64,000 nucleotides of DNA from Rhodothermaceae bacterium bin80 (GCA_002238805.1 MPNB01000009.1:123-64122); one strand, 5' to 3'. Shown: positions 290 through 8,368, counted from the stretch's first letter. Numbers and translations: made by a program. The notes: generated by a model from the sequence alone, not told the origin.

Positions 290-1186
290 ATGCGTTCGTA
301 CTCACAAGGAAGGAATTTTCAAACCTCAGTATTTGAAGAGTTTGAGCCATCAACGATTCCGGCTGCCAACGTGTCTAGCGTGCCACAGCGAAGTCTTCTT
401 AGGTACCCTGGCGGGAAAACATGGCTTGTGCCGCATATACGCAAATGGCTTATGGATCCTGTTGACACTCTCATTGAGCCGTTTGCCGGCGGCGGGATTG
501 TCTCATTAACAGCTGTGATGGAGGGATTGGCCGAACGGGTTCTCATGGTGGAGATAGATCAAGATCTATCTGCTTTCTGGCGGGTGGTACTGGATGATCC
601 GGAAAAGTTGATTGAACGCATTCAATCCTTTGCCTTCAGTCGTACAGAGGTTGAGCGTATAGCCAAGAGAGTCCCAAAAAGTGTTCTTGATCGTGGATTT
701 CGAACCCTTGTTCTCAACCGCACTCGATATGGAGGGGTTTTGGCGCCTGATGCTTCCTTAATCAGAAGCGGTGAAAATGGCGTTGGAATCGGTTCTCGGT
801 GGTACCCCAATACACTGGTAAACAGGATAAGGGATATTGCTCGGTATTCGGGTAAGCTGTCATTCCGTGAAAGTGATGGTGTGCGCTTGCTGGAGTTGTT
901 GTCTGATCGTCCCGAGACCGCTTTTTTTGTCGATCCACCATACACGGCGAAAGGGGGAAAGCAAGCAGGCACCCGACTCTACACTCATAACACTGTAGAT
1001 CATGCTCGTATTTTTGCCGCTTTGGCTAGGAGTCGAGCTAACTTTCTGATGACCTACGATTGTTCTTCCGAGATCATCAAACTGATTCGAAAGCACGAAT
1101 TTCAAGCTACTCTTGTAACAATGAAAAACCTTCACCATTTAAGGGTGCCCGAATTGATCATCACGCGTGACGAACTGTTCACTTGA
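290..1186 (+). CDS. D12-class (Dam-like) N6-adenine DNA methyltransferase
   Basis: 298-aa ORF with ATG start. N-terminal LRYPGGK block, SAM-binding EPFAGGG, and catalytic DPPY at 932-943 (FFVDPPYTAKG). Confidence 0.85.
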   Translation: MRSYSQGRNFQTSVFEEFEPSTIPAANVSSVPQRSLLRYPGGKTWLVPHIRKWLMDPVDTLIEPFAGGGIVSLTAVMEGLAERVLMVEIDQDLSAFWRVVLDDPEKLIERIQSFAFSRTEVERIAKRVPKSVLDRGFRTLVLNRTRYGGVLAPDASLIRSGENGVGIGSRWYPNTLVNRIRDIARYSGKLSFRESDGVRLLELLSDRPETAFFVDPPYTAKGGKQAGTRLYTHNTVDHARIFAALARSRANFLMTYDCSSEIIKLIRKHEFQATLVTMKNLHHLRVPELIITRDELFT

Positions 1187-1261
1187 ACGTTTCGGAATCT
1201 TCATGCGAAACGTCGTAATTCATGATGTTCGTCCCATCAACTAAAAAGCCCACAGCACCCT

Positions 1262-2323
1262 ATGAACACCTGTAATATTTCCCCATCCGACCTCTATCTT
1301 GATCCAACGAATCCACGGATCGGGTTTGAGGAATTCTCTCTAAGCGACCAGAAGAAGATCTTGCGCTGGCTCTGGCGAAATAATTCGGTGGACGAATTGG
1401 TGGACTCCATTCTCGCCAATTGCTACTGGGAACATGAGGAACTGTTCGCGACCAAAGAAGCAGGAAAGTTTGTTGTAGTTGAAGGCAATCGACGTCTTGC
1501 AGCTGTAAAAATCATCTCGGACGCTCATCTTCGGGAGGATTTAGGCATTAACCTAGAGGAGGGGCCCTCGAAACAAGTCCTTGATTCCATTCAAAAACTT
1601 CCAGTGATCTTCGCATCGCGAAAGGAGCTATGGAGTTTTGTCGGTTTTAAGCATGTTAATGGGCCACAAGTTTGGGATTCCATAGGTAAGGCTGAGTATG
1701 TATACAATGTGAGGACCAACTTCAATGTGTCCCTTGCTGAGATTGCATCAGGGATCGGGGATCGTCATGAAACTGTGACTCGCCTGTACCGGGGGTATGT
1801 TGTCCTTCGACAGGCGCAGGATCAACTGGCCTTTGATAAAACTCAGAGCCATCATTTTCGATTCCCGTTTTCCCATCTGTGGACTGCTCTGGGCTATTCA
1901 TCCATTCAAAGGTATCTGGGGGTTGATTCTAGAACACTTGAGAATGAAAATCCTATTCCCGAGCATCGATTACCACAACTTGGTCATCTTATGAACTGGC
2001 TTTACGGGAATCGGGACCGCAATATTGAGGCAAAGGTACGTCGACAGAATCCAGACCTCCGTCATTTGGCACAATCTCTTGAAAATCAGAAAGGTATAAA
2101 TCTGTTGGAATCAGGAAGTCCACTCTCGTCTGCATTGAATGCTTCACTTGGCGACAAATATCTGTTTCGAAATGCGCTCACGGAAGCTGATAAATACGCT
2201 AGGGATGCCATGCAATTTGTATCCACCGGGTTTGAGGGTGAGACTGATTTGATCGCAACAATGGAGAGTCTCCATAGACAGGCAGTGTCGCTAAAGTTTC
2301 TCATGAATCGTGACAATTCATGA
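1262..2323 (+). CDS. ParB/Srx N-terminal domain protein with central HTH-like segment
   Basis: 353 aa. KFVVVEGNRRLAAVKII (EGNRRLAA = 1481-1504) matches the ParB-type GxRR box. SLAEIASGIGDRHETVTRLYRGY looks like an HTH. The stop overlaps the next start (ATGA at 2320-2323). Confidence 0.6.
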   Translation: MNTCNISPSDLYLDPTNPRIGFEEFSLSDQKKILRWLWRNNSVDELVDSILANCYWEHEELFATKEAGKFVVVEGNRRLAAVKIISDAHLREDLGINLEEGPSKQVLDSIQKLPVIFASRKELWSFVGFKHVNGPQVWDSIGKAEYVYNVRTNFNVSLAEIASGIGDRHETVTRLYRGYVVLRQAQDQLAFDKTQSHHFRFPFSHLWTALGYSSIQRYLGVDSRTLENENPIPEHRLPQLGHLMNWLYGNRDRNIEAKVRRQNPDLRHLAQSLENQKGINLLESGSPLSSALNASLGDKYLFRNALTEADKYARDAMQFVSTGFEGETDLIATMESLHRQAVSLKFLMNRDNS

Positions 2324-3240
2324 CGGTGACAATAAACCCAAGTTTTCCAGCTGAAGAAAACGCCGACATCTTAGAATGGACCTGCGTAAAGGACTCTAAC
2401 GGCTACCTTGCATGGGCCGATGTGTTCTCCAACCTAAGACTTCTCCTCTCGGAGGATGAAGTAACCGCCACTTACGGTGAGTCTGATGATTTGAGGTCCA
2501 AAAGAGAGACCTTTGAGCTTATTCTGCAGGAATGGGTGGAAGTTCTTTCCCATCGGTTCCTAGCCTGCGGATCCGGTGATGGATATCCATTCAGGATCAC
2601 CGGGCAGGGACTTGAAGTTCGTGAAAGAACGTGTCCTGCGTATTTGTTCCAGCTCCTCGTATCTCTCGGCAATGATGATCGCCATCCTGATGGGACTACT
2701 GTTCCCAAGTTGTTTGAGGAACTGAGTGCCGCAGCTGCTGGGCGGTATCTAGGCGATAGCGAAACATGTGTAGTGTTTGGATTTCCACGAAATGATCTTC
2801 CTCAGGGATTTCGTGATGCAGTTGACCACTTGGTGGGATTGTTACGCGAGGGGAGGGCTTGTGCAAATGATCCCGAACTCAATAAATTAAAGGATGATGG
2901 TCTTGACGTTGTAGCGTGGAGAGAATTTCCCGACCGAAAAGCTTCAAAGCTGATCTTGTTTGGCCAATGTGCGACTGGTCGACTTTGGCGAGAGAAGACA
3001 TCTGAATTGCAGCCGGATGATTGGTGCAAAAATAACTTAGCAGAATCTCTCGCCGTGAATCCAGTCCCGGCATTTTTTGTCCCGAGGACCCTATCAGAAG
3101 TAGATGCTAAACGAACTGGAGTCAATAAGATTTTATTTGATCGCTGTCGTATTTCGGCATTATGTTCTGGAAAATTAAGCGGTCAGTTAAAGGAAAAGCT
3201 CTGGGGTTGGATTGATGTTTTCTGCAGTCCCCAGAGTTGA
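2320..3240 (+). CDS. Hypothetical protein, possible Mrr-like PD-(D/E)xK fold (lysine-less variant)
   Basis: 306 aa, translationally coupled to the ParB-like ORF. The blocks LFEELSAAAAGRYLG ... KDDGLDVVAW ... LILFGQCATG (2893-2979) resemble the FE / DGxD / QxK blocks of Mrr-type nucleases, but the K is replaced (QCA). Confidence 0.45.
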   Translation: MTVTINPSFPAEENADILEWTCVKDSNGYLAWADVFSNLRLLLSEDEVTATYGESDDLRSKRETFELILQEWVEVLSHRFLACGSGDGYPFRITGQGLEVRERTCPAYLFQLLVSLGNDDRHPDGTTVPKLFEELSAAAAGRYLGDSETCVVFGFPRNDLPQGFRDAVDHLVGLLREGRACANDPELNKLKDDGLDVVAWREFPDRKASKLILFGQCATGRLWREKTSELQPDDWCKNNLAESLAVNPVPAFFVPRTLSEVDAKRTGVNKILFDRCRISALCSGKLSGQLKEKLWGWIDVFCSPQS

Positions 3241-3556: not shown

Positions 3557-3599
3557 TGAGGACTAAATCTTTTGGTTGAGGCTTCAGTCCTCATTTTTT
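3557..3599 (+). terminator. Rho-independent-terminator-like hairpin
   Basis: TGAGGACT (3557-3564) pairs with AGTCCTCA (3586-3593). An alternative inner 5-bp stem is TGAGG/CCTCA. A T6 run follows at 3594-3599. Confidence 0.45.
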
Positions 3600-3700
3600 C
3601 GTAGCAATTCCCCAGAGCGGGGACATATAACGCTCATTTTCACTGATTTACGCCCCAATTGGTATCATTTCGGGAGTTTTGTCTGAGAATGTGTCTGCCC

Positions 3701-4321
3701 ATGTATGTCCCCAAAATTCCCAACCGGAATTCCAAACCAACCTGGCTCATTCGCGAGTCAAAATGGATCAATGGCAAATCTGTCAAAACAACTCTCGCCA
3801 ATATCACCAAGCTCCCCATGGAAACCATTGAGGAGTTTCGAATCCTCTTGGCGGGCGGCACCGCCGTCAAATCCGTCAAAGAGGCCCTCACCATTCGAAG
3901 CAACACCCCGCACGGACATGTAGCCGCCGTATTGGGCATGATGAACCAGCTCCATCTACCCGAACTGATTGCGCCGAAAAATTCCCGCTTCCGCCGATTG
4001 GTGCTCGGTATGATTGCTGCACGCGTGATCAAGCCGGCCAGCAAGCTCTCGACCAGCGCCATGCTGGATGTGCATACCGCGTCCACTACGCTCAATGAAG
4101 AGCTTGGACTCAAACGCGTGGATGAGGATGATCTCTATGATGCGATGGATGAATTGCTCAAACGCAAGACGAACATTGAATGTCGTTTGGCGAAACGGCA
4201 TCTCAGGCAGGGGAGCATGGTGCTTTACGATGTGACCAGCAGTTACGTGGAAGGCGAGAAAAATGAATGGGTCGCCTATGGCTACAACCGGGACAAGAAG
4301 AAGGGTGTATATTCAGATTGA
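3701..4321 (+). pseudogene. IS1634-family transposase, N-terminal fragment (about 207 aa of an expected ~550)
   Basis: MYVPKIPNRNSKPTWLIRESKWINGKSVKTTLANITKLPMETIEEFRILLAGG is the typical N terminus of this transposase family. It ends at ..GYNRDKKKG, where an IS21-like end begins. Confidence 0.7.
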
Positions 4322-4800
4322 CGTTGCCCGGGCATTCAGATTGATGTTGCCCACCTTGGGTGGATAACATCCGATTGATTTTCGGTGCAATTTTGATCTG
4401 AATTTCGAGACAGGATTTGTTGTTGGAGCAGGAAGAATTACAAGGCATTAGCGGCCCTGAACCAATCAGAGCAACTCATGCCACAACAACGAATTTCGAT
4501 GAAAACCATCCGTGACGTGCTGTGCTACTACTTACGATGAGGACTGCAGTAAGCGTCAAATCGCGGGCTACCTGCAGATCTCACCGGGGACGGTGCGTAA
4601 TTATCTTCGTCGCGCCGAGGCTGCGGGCGTGTCCCGGCCTCTTCCAGCGGAGTACACCGATGAAACCCTTGAGGCCTTGCTGTTCCCGCGCAATCCGTTT
4701 CCTTCCGATCGTCCCCAGCCGGACTGGACGGACCTCAACAGGCAGTTATCCCGGAAGGGGATGACCTTGGAGCAAATCTGGCATAACTACCGCCAAGTTC
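4305..4800 (+). mobile_element. IS21-family left end plus truncated, frameshifted istA
   Basis: Tandem 19-nt repeats ATTCAGATTGA(C/T)GTTGCCC at 4311-4329 and 4334-4352, with an inverted partial copy at 4395-4403 (IS21 ends carry multiple terminal repeats). The istA N terminus starts at 4478 (MPQQRISMKTIRDVLCYYLR), has a frameshift, then reads CSKRQIAGYLQISPGTVRNYLRRAEAAGVSRPLP...WHNYRQVHP. Similarity stops near 4800. Confidence 0.65.
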
Positions 4801-5196
4801 ATCCTCAATATGCTCAAGGATGCCCATTGCCAAGATGCAGTCAAAAGCTCCCTTAGCTTGGGGTTTCGTCACGTCATCAACCAACAACTTGACCCGATCA
4901 GACAAACCGAAGGCTAGAAAACAGCGGGCTGCCCGGTCTAAATAATCTTTTTTAACGTCTATCCCGGTGACCGAAACTCCTGAATACTTTCGTAGCACAT
5001 ACCAGGCATACTGCCCGAGGCCGGTGCAGGCATCCAGAAGCCTTGAGCCGGGGCCGAGGCTCAAATTTCGCAGTACACGATGGACATACCACGTTCGGAG
5101 GAATAATAAATCCAGAATTCCAAAAAGGATAGGGAGCAATCTCGGACGCGAGTCAAGCAGGCTGCTAAGCCGATCCTTGATCGGATCATACTCCAT
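4735..5196 (-). pseudogene. Class I SAM-dependent methyltransferase, C-terminally truncated at the IS21 junction
   Basis: LLDACTGLGQYAWYVL (motif I, xDxGxGxG-like), VTGIDV, LLVDDV, and ILAMGILEHIEDE. After about 4805 the reading frame runs into IS21-derived sequence. Confidence 0.6.
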
Positions 5197-5275
5197 CAGA
5201 TATCATCATTGTACCCATACCCCATACTGTAGAACAGGACCGTTGCAGTAACCAGTAGCTTGATTGACTGAAAAT

Positions 5276-5461
5276 TTATCGAGGCATTTCAAGCTCAAAT
5301 ATGCTGTCCTGGGCGGTTGTTGTTCCAATCTGTGTGCAATCAGTGAAAACGGTCACAAGTTCCAGGGGTTCTCCAGTGCGTTTGTTAGTTACAGTTCCGC
5401 GAACGGTAACCTGGGCCCCTGCGAAAACTGTGGTCAAAGCAATCACAGAGATAGCAAAAAC
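5276..5461 (-). pseudogene. TonB-dependent receptor (SusC-like) N-terminal stub
   Basis: My own translation of the minus strand gives ..FAISVIALTTVFAGAQ/VTVRGTVTNKRTGEPLELVTVFTDCTQIGTTTAQDSIFELEMPR*. That is a signal peptide plus the start of a CarboxypepD_reg-like domain, then a stop. There is no ATG and it is only about 60 codons long. Confidence 0.4.
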
Positions 5462-6002
5462 GTGTCAATGTCCAATGTCAAAATTTTCGGGATTGGCCTC
5501 CCGGTGCCTGCCAGAAAATACCTGTACGGACCTGGAAGACCAATGTCTGCCGATTGGCCGGCTTAAACGAGGCACTGGAGGAAACGCCCACATTCCACAA
5601 GCCTGCTCATCTTCGTCACTGCGAGATCAACTTTGAACCACGAATATCATTGAAGCATCGACAGCCGACTGGCACGCATCGCCACCCGATGGTGTAACTC
5701 GGATCAACGTCAACGATGGATTGCCGCAGCGTGCCTGGAGATTGAACACCGATCTCTGAAACCGATCCCCCAAGACTGGCAATGGGAAACCTTGATCCAG
5801 GCACTGAAACGACACAACCAAACCCCAAACCAGTATACTAGCATAAGTAGAGGGTTACAGCTTTCCAGATCTCCACTAGCTTTGATGCATCCCCCGCTGA
5901 TGAATTGGGCGATGAACCGTAGTTTAGGATTGATGTTTCAGGGCGATGTTGGGATTAGGATTATGTTCTAGGAATTGTAAAAGCCCGAGATAGTCTTGCA
6001 TT

Positions 6003-6320
6003 ATGGTTGACAATACGCCTGCCGATACTGTGTCTCAGTCTATCCCCATCTCTGATCACGATTTGCAGAAGCAGATAGAGGCATTAGACAGAGTCATTGA
6101 ACACCTTCGGCATGCCGCTGAGGCCAGAAGGAAAGTGAGAGAAGGGTGGGTCCCGAAAGAAACTTTCTGGGATGAGTTAATTGATGTAAACTGTACTCCC
6201 ATGGGGCAGAACACAGAATATGGTGAAGATGCTTATTGGCATAGTATGCAGGGAGTATGGCATCTTGTAGGAGCCTATTTGGCGGAAGCTATGTCCTTGT
6301 ATGACGACGATCTAGGATGA
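6003..6320 (+). CDS. Hypothetical protein (105 aa)
   Basis: Open frame with ATG start. No recognisable motif. Confidence 0.3.
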   Translation: MVDNTPADTVSQSIPISDHDLQKQIEALDRVIEHLRHAAEARRKVREGWVPKETFWDELIDVNCTPMGQNTEYGEDAYWHSMQGVWHLVGAYLAEAMSLYDDDLG

Positions 6321-6334
6321 CAGACCAACGGTAA

Positions 6335-6550
6335 ATGGAGACGGTGAAGCCAATGATGAAGCCGAAGATTTTTGAAGATTTCGGCCCAATTCAGGTCAAT
6401 ACCGCCGGAAAGGGCCCTCAGAGTGGGTTATACGCCCCAGAAACGGAAAATCTAGATTTGAAGGAATATCTTCGTACCGCAGCCCGCGCAATAAAATCAC
6501 GAAATTCAGCCCAAAATCGCCCAAAATCGACGCATATGACCCCTTTCTGA
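6335..6550 (+). CDS. Hypothetical protein (71 aa)
   Basis: Short ORF 15 nt downstream of the previous one. No motif. Confidence 0.2.
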   Translation: METVKPMMKPKIFEDFGPIQVNTAGKGPQSGLYAPETENLDLKEYLRTAARAIKSRNSAQNRPKSTHMTPF

Positions 6551-6601
6551 CGGAAATTAGAATACTTTTGCTATTTCCGGGCAAGCACTACATAATTCTC
6601 T

Positions 6602-7129
6602 ATGCATATGAGTCCGTATAACGTCGGTACGTCGAGGAACTGGAATCATTGGGGCGTCATTACTCTGGCCGTTTGCGCGCTACTGGTGCTCACCCATTGC
6701 GACAGTGGTTTCGTTAATTCACAGTGTACGGAGGACCAGGAAGCGATCGCGAAGGAGTATGACAGTGCGGAGTGGCCGTGCGAAAAATTCGTCGACAGCG
6801 TGACCCCCGGGGACGGCACAGACAATCATTCGACGGGCTATCTCTCAGGTGCGTACAAGTCTGGCAGGGATGCCGTATGGTCGTACATGAGCTCCGAGTT
6901 TGATGTCTCCGGATGGATCGGATCCGACTGGCGTTGCCCGGAGGGCAACACGAGGGTGGGCGGCGCGTCGGGAAGCCAGCACGTGCAGGGCACGGCGGGT
7001 GACTTCACCGCCGATGGCTTTGACGAGACGATGTGGGAGAAGTTCGAGAAGGCGGCGATAGACGCCGGAAGGGGTTGGAACTCGGCCAAAGGGCGATACA
7101 CGAGTCATATTCACATAGATTGGAGGTAG
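6602..7129 (+). CDS. Peptidase M15A-like (zinc D-Ala-D-Ala carboxypeptidase / YcbK-DUF882-type) cell-wall hydrolase
   Basis: SGWIGSDWRCPEGNTRVGGASGSQHVQGTAGDF ... HIHIDWR matches the SxxRxxxxNxxVGGxxxSxHxxGxAxD ... H.D zinc-ligand pattern. N-terminal hydrophobic segment ends in a Cys (LVLTHC). The region is GC-rich. Confidence 0.7.
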   Translation: MHMSPYNVGTSRNWNHWGVITLAVCALLVLTHCDSGFVNSQCTEDQEAIAKEYDSAEWPCEKFVDSVTPGDGTDNHSTGYLSGAYKSGRDAVWSYMSSEFDVSGWIGSDWRCPEGNTRVGGASGSQHVQGTAGDFTADGFDETMWEKFEKAAIDAGRGWNSAKGRYTSHIHIDWR

Positions 7130-7131
7130 CG

Positions 7132-7962
7132 ATGCGAGTATTAGGAAGATATTTATATTTCACTCAGGCCCTGTTGCTGCTGGGGCTTCCGGCTGTGAGC
7201 ACCGCGCAGGAGCGGGCGGCCCCACCGCCGATGGCGGAGCAGACGGCGGCAGCAGCGCTCGCTGAGGGTCAGTTGACGCCGGAAAGGGACCGCGCGCTGG
7301 CACTCGCGCTCGACCTTGGCGCGCGTGCCGGGTTTGAACTACGAGGCGCCGTTATCAACGCGGCGTGGGCGGAACTGCGTGGCGAGACGGACCGACCCGA
7401 GGGCTCCGAGGCGATCTTCGACTATATGCACGCCGTGGCACAGCTGGGGGATCCACGCGCAATCCCGTTTCTGATTGAGGTGCTGGGGAATGGGCAGAAT
7501 GCCTCGAACGCACTGGCGGACTTCGGCGCGGCGGCGTTCCCTGCCGCGCTCGAGGTCGTGTCGAATCCCGACGAAGACCCATCCCGTGTCCACGGGGCTC
7601 TGACGGCGCTCCGGTTCATGCTCGAGGACGGAGTCCTGACTGCCGGGCAGGCGGACCAGGTGCGCGCGGTCGTGCGGGGCCGGCTCTCTGGATCCCAGAC
7701 TCCCACTGTCGTGAGCACGGCCCTGCGACTCGCGCTGGCGCTCAAAGATCTGGAGCTGCGGGGGATTGTAGAGAGGTTCGTGGACGACCGGGGCTTCGCC
7801 GAGACGCTTATATCGCCTTATCTGCCTTCCGGCGTTACACGCAGCAGCCGAGACTACGCCCAGTGGGTCAACCTCGTCCAGAAGGAAGCACGGACGTTCC
7901 TGGACGGCGGCGGCGCGGACATCGGGCCGTATCGTAGCCGGATGGCCGTAGCTATCCATTAG
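7132..7962 (+). CDS. Secreted HEAT-repeat-like protein
   Basis: The ATG at 7132 lies 2 nt after the M15 stop and gives a signal peptide, MRVLGRYLYFTQALLLLGLPAVSTAQ. DPRAIPFLIEVLGNGQNASNALADFGAAAFPAALEVVSNPDEDP is HEAT-like. The track ORF start at 7033 overlaps the upstream gene and is unlikely. Confidence 0.6.
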   Translation: MRVLGRYLYFTQALLLLGLPAVSTAQERAAPPPMAEQTAAAALAEGQLTPERDRALALALDLGARAGFELRGAVINAAWAELRGETDRPEGSEAIFDYMHAVAQLGDPRAIPFLIEVLGNGQNASNALADFGAAAFPAALEVVSNPDEDPSRVHGALTALRFMLEDGVLTAGQADQVRAVVRGRLSGSQTPTVVSTALRLALALKDLELRGIVERFVDDRGFAETLISPYLPSGVTRSSRDYAQWVNLVQKEARTFLDGGGADIGPYRSRMAVAIH

Positions 7963-8368
7963 AAAGCAAGGCGGCCTGAGAGGGCGCATTAGCTGCCCAG
8001 GTGTGGCGTCCGTGAAAATGCGCCCGCCAGTTGAGGTTGCCCGTGTCATCTACGGGGCGGATGAGGATGTGTATATGGGGCCGTAATTCGTCCCGGTGGA
8101 GTTGTGCGAGTTCTACTTGTCCGGGCACATGCTGTTGGCCCCATTCCATTGTGGCCCTGGTCCACACCCGTATGTCTGTTTCATTTGTCTTATCCAGTTC
8201 CTTAGGCAATGTGCATATCATGGAGGCCATGAGGTTGGCATCAGATCTAATTTTGCGTCCATGCGGCTGGTGCTTTGGCACTGGGCCGAGTTCATTTTTT
8301 CGAAAGATGAGGCAGATCGGGATCTCAAGCAATGGCTGAAACCGGAGACTCCGGGTGAGATAGCTCAA
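7952..8368 (-). pseudogene. Mob_Pre-type mobilisation relaxase fragment
   Basis: ..VELAQLHRDELRPHIHILIRPVDDTGNLNWRAHF.. matches the H.DE..PH.H...P..dG.L motif of Pre/Mob relaxases. Only about 100 relevant residues remain, and there is no intact N or C terminus. Confidence 0.55.

Follow-up and report, generated by a model that had tools for sequence, protein, structure and literature searches.

What kind of system is formed by three adjacent bacterial genes that encode an adenine DNA methyltransferase, a ParB-like protein and a nuclease-like protein, and does it belong to any of the defence systems that already carry a name? The question is raised by a locus of Rhodothermaceae bacterium bin80, located at positions 290-3240 of a stretch of 64,000 nucleotides (nt) (GCA_002238805.1, MPNB01000009.1:123-64122) that was analyzed as a whole and is called the window below. 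Open reading frame 1 (ORF1; 290-1186, 298 amino acids, aa) encodes a predicted D12-class (Dam-like, alpha-type) N6-adenine DNA methyltransferase. ORF2 (1262-2323, 353 aa) encodes a protein with a putative ParB/Srx-fold N-domain, a helix-turn-helix (HTH) and an all-helical C-domain, and ORF3 (2320-3240, 306 aa) combines a variable N-terminal domain with a PD-(D/E)xK-like C-domain. All three genes, and the motifs and spacer described within the locus, are on the plus strand. An earlier note, made from the DNA sequence, had described three co-directional ORFs separated by a 75-nt gap and an ATGA overlap and had named motifs in each of their products; this layout is confirmed, with the spacer at 1187-1261 and the 4-nt overlap at 2320-2323, and the motifs are all present at the sequence level. 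The module has a G+C content of 47%, against 51% for the genome, and some 410 nt separate it from the end of its contig. We read the trio as a candidate three-component restriction-modification (R-M)-like defence module residing on mobile DNA, with a probability of about 0.6. This candidate module is widespread, has no name and is an effector-swapped relative of PD-lambda-5, a system validated in Escherichia coli and termed a compacted system of R-M and abortive infection (RM+Abi) (Vassallo et al. 2022; PMC9519451).

Do the three genes belong together? One genome per species was scanned and 80 loci encoding ORF3 relatives were kept, originating from about ten phyla among which Gemmatimonadota, Rhodothermales/Bacteroidota, Planctomycetota, Acidobacteriota, Chloroflexota, Actinomycetota and Verrucomicrobiota. 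In 76 of these 80 loci the gene directly upstream of ORF3 is a relative of ORF2, and in three of the other four ORF3 is cut at a contig end. A DNA methyltransferase is encoded within 1.5 kb of the ORF2-ORF3 pair, again in 76/80 loci. The earlier note had considered that ORF2 and ORF3 might not be conserved next to this methyltransferase in other genomes; this doubt is lifted, since both are conserved beside a methyltransferase across phyla. The class and the position of the enzyme vary, with N6_N4 methyltransferases (PF01555) downstream of the pair in 39 loci, D12 enzymes downstream in 27 and D12 enzymes upstream in 10. Across loci, the pairwise identities of ORF2 correlate with those of ORF3 (Pearson 0.89), ORF2 being the more conserved of the two. 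On a tree of concatenated ORF2-ORF3, the methylase class changes at least seven times, or at least nine times when its position is counted, and it is far more clustered than shuffled labels. The ORF2-ORF3 pair is the stable core of the module: because a methylase accompanies it in 76/80 loci and changes class along the pair tree, the requirement for a methylase does not vary, whereas the enzyme that fills it can be exchanged.

The methyltransferase of the window had been assigned to the D12 class of N6-adenine enzymes from its motifs, and the profile searches bear this out. ORF1 matches Pfam PF02086 (MethyltransfD12) at 2.9e-15 and 57.1 bits, for a gathering cut-off of 22 bits, its residues 39-268 aligning on positions 1-240 of the 253 of the profile. 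Its best PADLOC model, ranking above the generic Type II methyltransferase models, is PD-Lambda-5_B (PDLC04018; 5.7e-42, residues 34-296 on positions 5-273 of 291). The S-adenosylmethionine (SAM) motif FAGGG (aa 65-69, window 482-496) can be read in the sequence, as can the catalytic DPPY (aa 215-218, window 932-943) on its 3' side. On these features, ORF1 is predicted to be an adenine methyltransferase of the D12 class whose motifs are intact.

ORF2 has no Pfam and no NCBIfam match, ParB_N (PF02195) included; a paralogue encoded elsewhere in the same genome, on contig C73, reaches ParB_N at E 0.089 and 13 bits, below the cut-off of 26. The relationship to ParB emerges from modelling and profile comparison. 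The AlphaFold2 (AF2) model of ORF2, built on an alignment of 38 homologues, has a predicted local distance difference test score (pLDDT) of 88.8, and Foldseek aligns it with 29 PDB chains at E <= 1e-3 (probability 1.00, best 4e-6). All 29 are ParB, Noc, KorB or Spo0J proteins, and the matches cover the nucleotide-binding N-domain together with the HTH; a sulfiredoxin is matched at E 0.037. Consistently, hhalign aligns the ORF2 family with 16 genuine ParB proteins, all chromosomal and taken from related genomes, at E 1.5e-4 and a probability of 51%, with Box II and the HTH helices in register and VVVEGNRRLAAVK of ORF2 placed on ISGERRLRAA of ParB. The ParB-type N-terminal box and HTH segment that had been read by eye are thereby supported on two grounds, and ORF2 is predicted by its model and its sequence to have a ParB/Noc/KorB-like fold made of an N-domain and an HTH. 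PDB sequence searches with ORF2, ORF3 and both family profiles returned nothing meaningful.

Along the ORF2 gene, a Box I-like DPTNPR is encoded at 1301-1318, the Box II motif EGNRR within VVVEGNRRLAAVKII (aa 71-85, window 1472-1516), a conserved KHVNGPQ-WD block at 1646-1678 and the HTH at 1733-1798. Box II, the KHVNGPQ-WD block and the HTH are the most conserved blocks among 72 loci, and the residues P18-R19, E74-G75-N76-R77-R78 and K130-H131 are invariant in the family, which comprises 1,486 homologues found by a word-indexed search. Two PADLOC models recognize parts of the protein. PD-Lambda-5_A matches the N-terminus only, at 1e-17 (residues 5-163 on positions 13-173 of 473), and PDC-M38A aligns over residues 39-332 (positions 57-349 of 715).

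What is ORF3? It has no match in Pfam (up to E <= 1), NCBIfam or PADLOC, and it is far from rare: a word-indexed search collected 313 proteins and an exhaustive profile search 2,965 cluster representatives at 50% identity. Each of the best 150 of these 2,965 is a standalone protein 200-360 aa long; fused ParB-ORF3 proteins were sought among the same 150 and none was found. The AF2 model of ORF3 has a pLDDT of 90.7 and a predicted template modelling score (pTM) of 0.90. Foldseek finds no match to it at E <= 1e-3, the best being at E 0.01, and the best PDB matches, weak as they are (E 0.01-0.6), all belong to the PD-(D/E)xK group: VC1899, Card1, Can2 and EcoT38I. Further weak matches are BsmI and NucS (E 1.8-3.7) and, in a viral library, proteins labelled 'restriction endonuclease' and 'Mrr domain' (E 0.02-0.04). 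Sequence profiles point the same way at non-significant levels. The ORF3 family was aligned by hhalign with 14 real Mrr_cat domains from related genomes in three runs (whole protein, C-domain only, and only the subset of members with a QCK motif), giving E 0.005-0.03 and probabilities of 1.6-7%; in two of the three, the motifs fell in the right register, KD-x-LDVVAW...FGQC of ORF3 on GDGGIDV...VQ(A/C)K of Mrr_cat. In Pfam, the QCK members of the family do not match Mrr_cat even at E <= 5. The description of ORF3 as Mrr-like, made in the earlier note, thus holds for the D...QxK motif order and for weak fold matches of the restriction type, and does not extend to a Pfam match or to an hhalign probability above 7%.

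The same note had called ORF3 lysine-less, and the residues of the putative active site qualify this claim. The variable N-terminal domain (about aa 1-125) is followed by FEEL (aa 132-135), DDGLDVVAW with D192 and D196 (aa 192-200, window 2893-2919), LFGQCATG with Q216-C217-A218 (aa 213-220, window 2956-2979), Lys226 (window 2995-2997), a candidate relocated lysine, and DRCRI (window 3136-3153). In a survey of 261 family members, among them the two other copies of the source genome and three homologues from phages, D192 is kept in 260 and so is D196, R275 is kept in 257, Q216 in 255 and E133 in 253; R277 is also near-invariant. The N-domain is the most variable part of the protein, with a mean identity of 31% against 42% for the C-domain. 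Position 218, that of the Mrr 'QxK' lysine, is Ala in 238/261 members and Lys in 10, and position 226 is Lys in 248. The two lysines never occur together: none of the 261 proteins has both, 10 have only K218, 248 only K226 and three neither, two of these three being scrambled sequences. This exclusivity has a Fisher probability of 8e-16, a value that ignores kinship and may reflect a single event. The canonical position is therefore indeed occupied by Ala in ORF3, as the note had seen; Lys226 is nevertheless present in 248/261 relatives and missing in all ten carriers of Lys218. The pattern is that of a catalytic lysine moved eight residues downstream (218 to 226) rather than lost, and the mutual exclusivity argues for an active site with a moved lysine, not for a dead enzyme. 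The acidic residues and the Q/lysine motif of the PD-(D/E)xK kind are thus present in ORF3, in a variant form with a relocated lysine.

Homologues of the trio are also found in P2-like phages: Wphi, where the genes are gp98, gp96 and Mth (AY135739), the E. coli phage vB_EcoM-12474III (NC_049457) and the Pseudomonas phage vB_PaeM-D14A (BK061475). The phage ParB-like homologue is 28% identical to ORF2 over 86% of its length, and the phage ORF3 homologues are full-length (hhalign 96.5-97.8%, E 1e-9 to 7e-13) and share the D-G-hD...QC(A/G)...K motifs. The Wphi cassette therefore has the same three-part architecture as the window trio, with homologous ParB-like and ORF3-like proteins; it differs by its methylase, a C5-cytosine enzyme encoded on the opposite strand as in the two other phage cassettes, whereas the D12 gene of the window is co-directional with its partners. 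The cassette of vB_EcoM-12474III directly follows the portal gene, and the region beside the P2 portal gene is a defence hotspot according to Vassallo et al. (PMC9519451). The phage proteins carry no annotation beyond hypothetical or 'ParB N-terminal domain-containing', and PADLOC has no model matching the phage ORF3 homologues.

The distribution of the trio within its own lineage is patchy. The source assembly (4.08 Mb, 94% complete) contains three complete trios. With the window trio (contig C163; order methylase, ParB-like, nuclease-like) as reference, the trio at C73:3126-6108, on the minus strand and in the same order, has identities of 69%, 37% and 31% for the methylase, ParB-like and nuclease-like proteins, and the trio at C29:36437-39471, also on the minus strand and in the order ParB-like, nuclease-like, methylase, has 60%, 35% and 27%. 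The C73 nuclease-like protein carries the canonical QCK (FGQCKTG) and lacks K226. Of 24 genomes of the same genus, 11 have the family; copy numbers range from 0 to 3, and some copies contain stops. None of the 16 genomes sampled in other families of the order has it. Within its genus, the family comes and goes rapidly, and three diverged trios in one genome speak of a heavy investment of this lineage in the module.

Some observations on these copies may be added. ORF1-like fragments at C80:1124-1385 and C129:13683-13799, up to 80% identical over 30 aa, are probably remnants of decayed methylase copies. In-frame stops or truncations are seen in the ORF3 copies of congeners at G010:C82:28634-28999, G323:C130:1013-1945 and G326:C52:26167-26820. 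In the closest relative, a Rhodothermaceae metagenome-assembled genome (L001:1-9218), the trio stands between genes for a 1,382-aa HTH_31/MqsA-domain protein and a 584-aa GmrSD_N (DUF262) protein, which is a defence-island setting; in another relative it adjoins an integrase.

How might such a module operate? ORF1, judging from its family membership and intact catalytic motifs, would mark host DNA as self by adenine methylation. ORF2 and ORF3, whose genes are presumably translationally coupled and appear to co-evolve, would form the restriction half, in which ORF2, probably a nucleotide-gated DNA-binding protein, may engage DNA and recruit or license ORF3, and ORF3, as a PD-(D/E)xK-type nuclease, would cut DNA devoid of the mark. 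Target or partner specificity is most plausibly sought in the poorly conserved N-terminal domain of ORF3. In a more specific version of this scheme, that we put forward tentatively and consider possible though doubtful, ORF2 would act as a ParB clamp gated by a nucleotide in the manner of cytidine triphosphate (CTP), loading on DNA, closing and sliding once the nucleotide is bound, and delivering or switching on ORF3 where the methyl mark is missing. The ORF2-ORF3 pair would then be largely indifferent to the class of its methylase, and site reading would come from the variable N-domain of ORF3 or from the methylase itself. If true, the clamp would represent a new coupling of self/non-self marks to DNA cleavage, and a modular 'ParB sensor' would be common to PD-lambda-5 (with HEPN), PDC-M38 (with an ATPase and a DUF3226 protein) and the trio (with PD-(D/E)xK).

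Several points weigh against a restriction module of this kind. The nuclease assignment of ORF3 draws on weak fold matches, on motifs and on a non-significant Mrr_cat profile match, and nucleoside triphosphate (NTP) binding by ORF2 is suggested only by its fold and motifs. The HTH of ORF2 is among its most conserved segments, also across differing methylase classes, and for this reason ORF2 is unlikely to read a site matched to the methylase; site matching, if present, is more likely to reside in the ORF3 N-domain or in the methylase than in ORF2, and otherwise the trio may not follow a strict site-matched R-M logic. The pairing of the nuclease half with methylases of three classes is left without explanation by an R-M scheme. 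Finally, PD-lambda-5 works best against T-even phages, whose DNA is resistant to most classical restriction (PMC9519451), and simple R-M logic may on this account fail for the whole group.

Four other explanations have to be weighed against the three-component restriction module. In an ordinary Type II R-M system, ORF3 alone would recognize and cut the site of ORF1, and ORF2 would be a mere regulator or accessory, for instance a controller that delays expression. A methylase gene adjoining that of a PD-(D/E)xK-like protein, the HTH of ORF2 and a variable ORF3 N-domain that could serve as recognition domain all suit such a system, but with its 353 aa ORF2 is far above the size of controller proteins and it retains the invariant motifs of the ParB nucleotide-pocket type (P18-R19, EGNRR 74-78, K130-H131). 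It is also present in 76/80 loci, co-diverges with ORF3 and is more conserved than it is, and Type II nucleases of differing specificity rarely form one alignable family across D12, N6_N4 and C5 partners; we regard this explanation as unlikely. Quite unlikely as well is an ORF3 that has become an inactive reader or adaptor of PD-(D/E)xK fold, either in a BREX-like limitation without cleavage or with the ParB/Srx domain of ORF2 as the nicking activity. The Ala found in place of the canonical lysine in 238/261 relatives and the weakness of the fold and profile matches to active nucleases would be expected from it, and some ParB/Srx proteins nick DNA, according to a passage of PMC12839542 that cites such cases. 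It is hard to reconcile with the near-invariance of D192, D196, Q216, R275 and R277, and the reciprocal K218/K226 pattern argues that the lysine is needed, as in an active rather than a decayed enzyme.

The remaining two explanations displace the function from restriction to cell death or to maintenance. As an abortive-infection or addiction module, the trio would hold a toxic ORF3 nuclease in check through ORF2 or methylation and release it upon infection or loss of the element, thereby killing the cell rather than cutting foreign DNA in a selective way. The RM+Abi label of PD-lambda-5 and its broad activity, T-even phages included (PMC9519451), lend this some appeal, as do the mobile and patchy nature of the element with its decayed copies and the replacement of the methylase by three classes, which fits a generic 'methylation present' signal over strict site matching. 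Yet neither HEPN nor another RNase domain was found in the trio with Pfam, PADLOC or NCBIfam, a methylase that can hardly be dispensed with is what characterizes self-protection from a DNA-directed effector, and no conflict is obvious among the three trios that share one genome, so that this outcome appears rather unlikely to us. A partition or maintenance cassette without a defence role, in which a ParB-like segregation protein would be accompanied by a processing nuclease and an orphan methylase, is very improbable. ORF2 does resemble partition and KorB-type proteins, and the neighbours of the trio are mobile-element fragments; on the other hand, the trio has no ParA gene beside it in the window, nor is one listed for two related loci, and the genuine chromosomal ParB is encoded elsewhere, on contig C186. 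Moreover, the cassette sits among the accessory genes of P2-like phages, in one case beside the portal gene, a methylase is almost always adjacent, and of the two relatives of the ParB module that are linked to a methylase, each is a defence system or a candidate for one.

A three-component restriction module would have practical and conceptual consequences. The ORF3 family, with about 3,000 clusters in many phyla and in P2-like coliphages, has yet no Pfam, NCBIfam or PADLOC model, and current defence-finding pipelines would report here at most a partial PD-lambda-5 match, or nothing. Should the trio function in restriction, it would add an architecture of three components that involves a ParB-type nucleotide switch, and the version carried by Wphi in E. 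coli W, a laboratory organism, would offer a tractable entry to PD-lambda-5-like mechanisms. The reciprocal lysine pattern also yields a precise prediction for site-directed mutants of ORF3.

The DNA between and around the three genes calls for some description. The ORF1-ORF2 spacer contains a perfect 8-bp inverted repeat directly after the ORF1 stop, ACGTTTCG at 1187-1194 and CGAAACGT at 1206-1213, separated by 11 nt. The repeat is not conserved in relatives of the same gene order; a conserved operator or attenuator was considered and rejected for this reason, and no function is claimed for it. The terminator-like hairpin noticed earlier does exist on the plus strand at 3557-3599, as TGAGG...CCTCA at 3577-3593 followed by T6 or, alternatively, as a longer stem of 8 bp that starts at 3557. 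The ORF3 stop is about 340 nt away on its 5' side, however, and such sites are no commoner here than in shuffled sequence: five occur in the region, against 4.2 +/- 1.9 after shuffling. The hairpin may possibly end the transcription unit, and because the count of sites does not exceed that of shuffled sequence it is weak evidence for a transcript end. A promoter scan of the region likewise gave no sites above the shuffled sequence.

The earlier note had also placed the trio at the border of a graveyard of insertion sequences (IS), and fragments of this kind were identified downstream. The stretch at 3640-7129 is a degenerate mobile-element region in which an ORF at 3659-4321 has no Pfam match and is followed by an IS-type HTH fragment (4512-4856), a truncated SAM methyltransferase on the minus strand (4735-5196) and a Peptidase_M15_3 gene (6602-7129). 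Between 7000 and 8000 the G+C content rises to 62-67%, against 46-50% around it, and this part looks like a patch of other origin; it includes a 309-aa ORF at 7033-7962, without a Pfam match, adjoined by a Mob_Pre relaxase fragment on the minus strand (7952-8368).

To which named systems, then, does the trio come closest? Some have in common with it the general idea of coupling a ParB/Srx-fold nucleotide-binding domain to a defence DNA nuclease, as is the case for GmrSD, BrxU and SspE (PMC12373910, PMC10952713). These systems associate a DUF262 ParB-like NTPase with an HNH or DUF1524 nuclease, and they are modification-dependent and without a methylase of their own. ORF2 has no match to DUF262 (PF03235) and no DGQQR motif, its Box II reading EGNRR, and Pfam detects no HNH/His-Me finger in ORF2 or ORF3. 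The nuclease-like protein itself is reminiscent of the Type IV restriction nuclease Mrr (Mrr_cat, PF04471), with which it shares, in register, a D-x-x-hD-h-h-a strand followed by h-Q-(A/C)-K on the next strand, and ten members of the ORF3 family, the C73 paralogue among them, have the exact QCK. It differs from Mrr by the relocation of the lysine in 95% of the family and by the lack of a Pfam match even for the QCK members. Unlike Mrr, ORF3 presumably attacks unmodified DNA, because it is linked to a methylase.

The ParB-type module leads to closer relatives. PDC-M38A has the whole ParB-N, HTH and helical module of ORF2 but runs on into an AAA_15/AAA_21 ABC-type ATPase, for a total of about 720 aa, and a DUF3226 protein comes after it. 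ORF3 is related neither to the ATPase nor to the DUF3226 protein, and the window trio has neither of them; PDC-M38A was considered as an ORF2-ORF3 fusion and rejected, its C-terminal half being an ABC-type ATPase. Examples of PDC-M38 are found at L123:1495-4558 and L124:605-3663, and split two-gene versions also exist in the phylum. In the literature, we found no description of a system made of ParB, PD-(D/E)xK and methylase proteins, nor of PDC-M38.

The closest of the named systems is PD-lambda-5. Its D12 methyltransferase belongs to the same subfamily as ORF1, which matches PD-Lambda-5_B over nearly its full length, its partner protein opens with the same ParB-type N-domain as ORF2, and both PD-lambda-5 and the trio are found on prophages and mobile islands. 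The PD-lambda-5 methylase is active in vivo, as its cloning required an mrr-deleted host (PMC9519451). There are also differences: PD-lambda-5 consists of two genes and the window trio of three, and its A protein counts 430-590 aa versus 353 aa for ORF2. In Marinobacter phage AS1, which carries a genuine two-gene PD-lambda-5 whose A protein covers positions 4-381 of the 473 of the profile, this protein has no ORF3-like part, and in BLASTP only residues 6-150 of ORF2 align with it. A HEPN domain is listed for PD-lambda-5 in a preprint (bioRxiv 10.1101/2024.10.26.620412); Pfam found nothing in the AS1 protein, and the reported HEPN was not confirmed there. A separate PD-(D/E)xK-like third protein, for which PADLOC has no model, is thus present in the trio and has no counterpart in PD-lambda-5. 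The earlier opinion that the trio could not be assigned to a named system remains correct in that no system matches it exactly, but it had missed the kinship with PD-lambda-5, to which PADLOC connects both ORF1 and the N-terminus of ORF2. From the sequences compared here, the ParB-type module occurs with three predicted effectors, in PD-lambda-5, in PDC-M38 and, in a PD-(D/E)xK version, in the window trio; because the ParB module is shared and the effectors differ, we take the trio to be a relative of PD-lambda-5 with a swapped effector, distinct from PD-lambda-5 proper.

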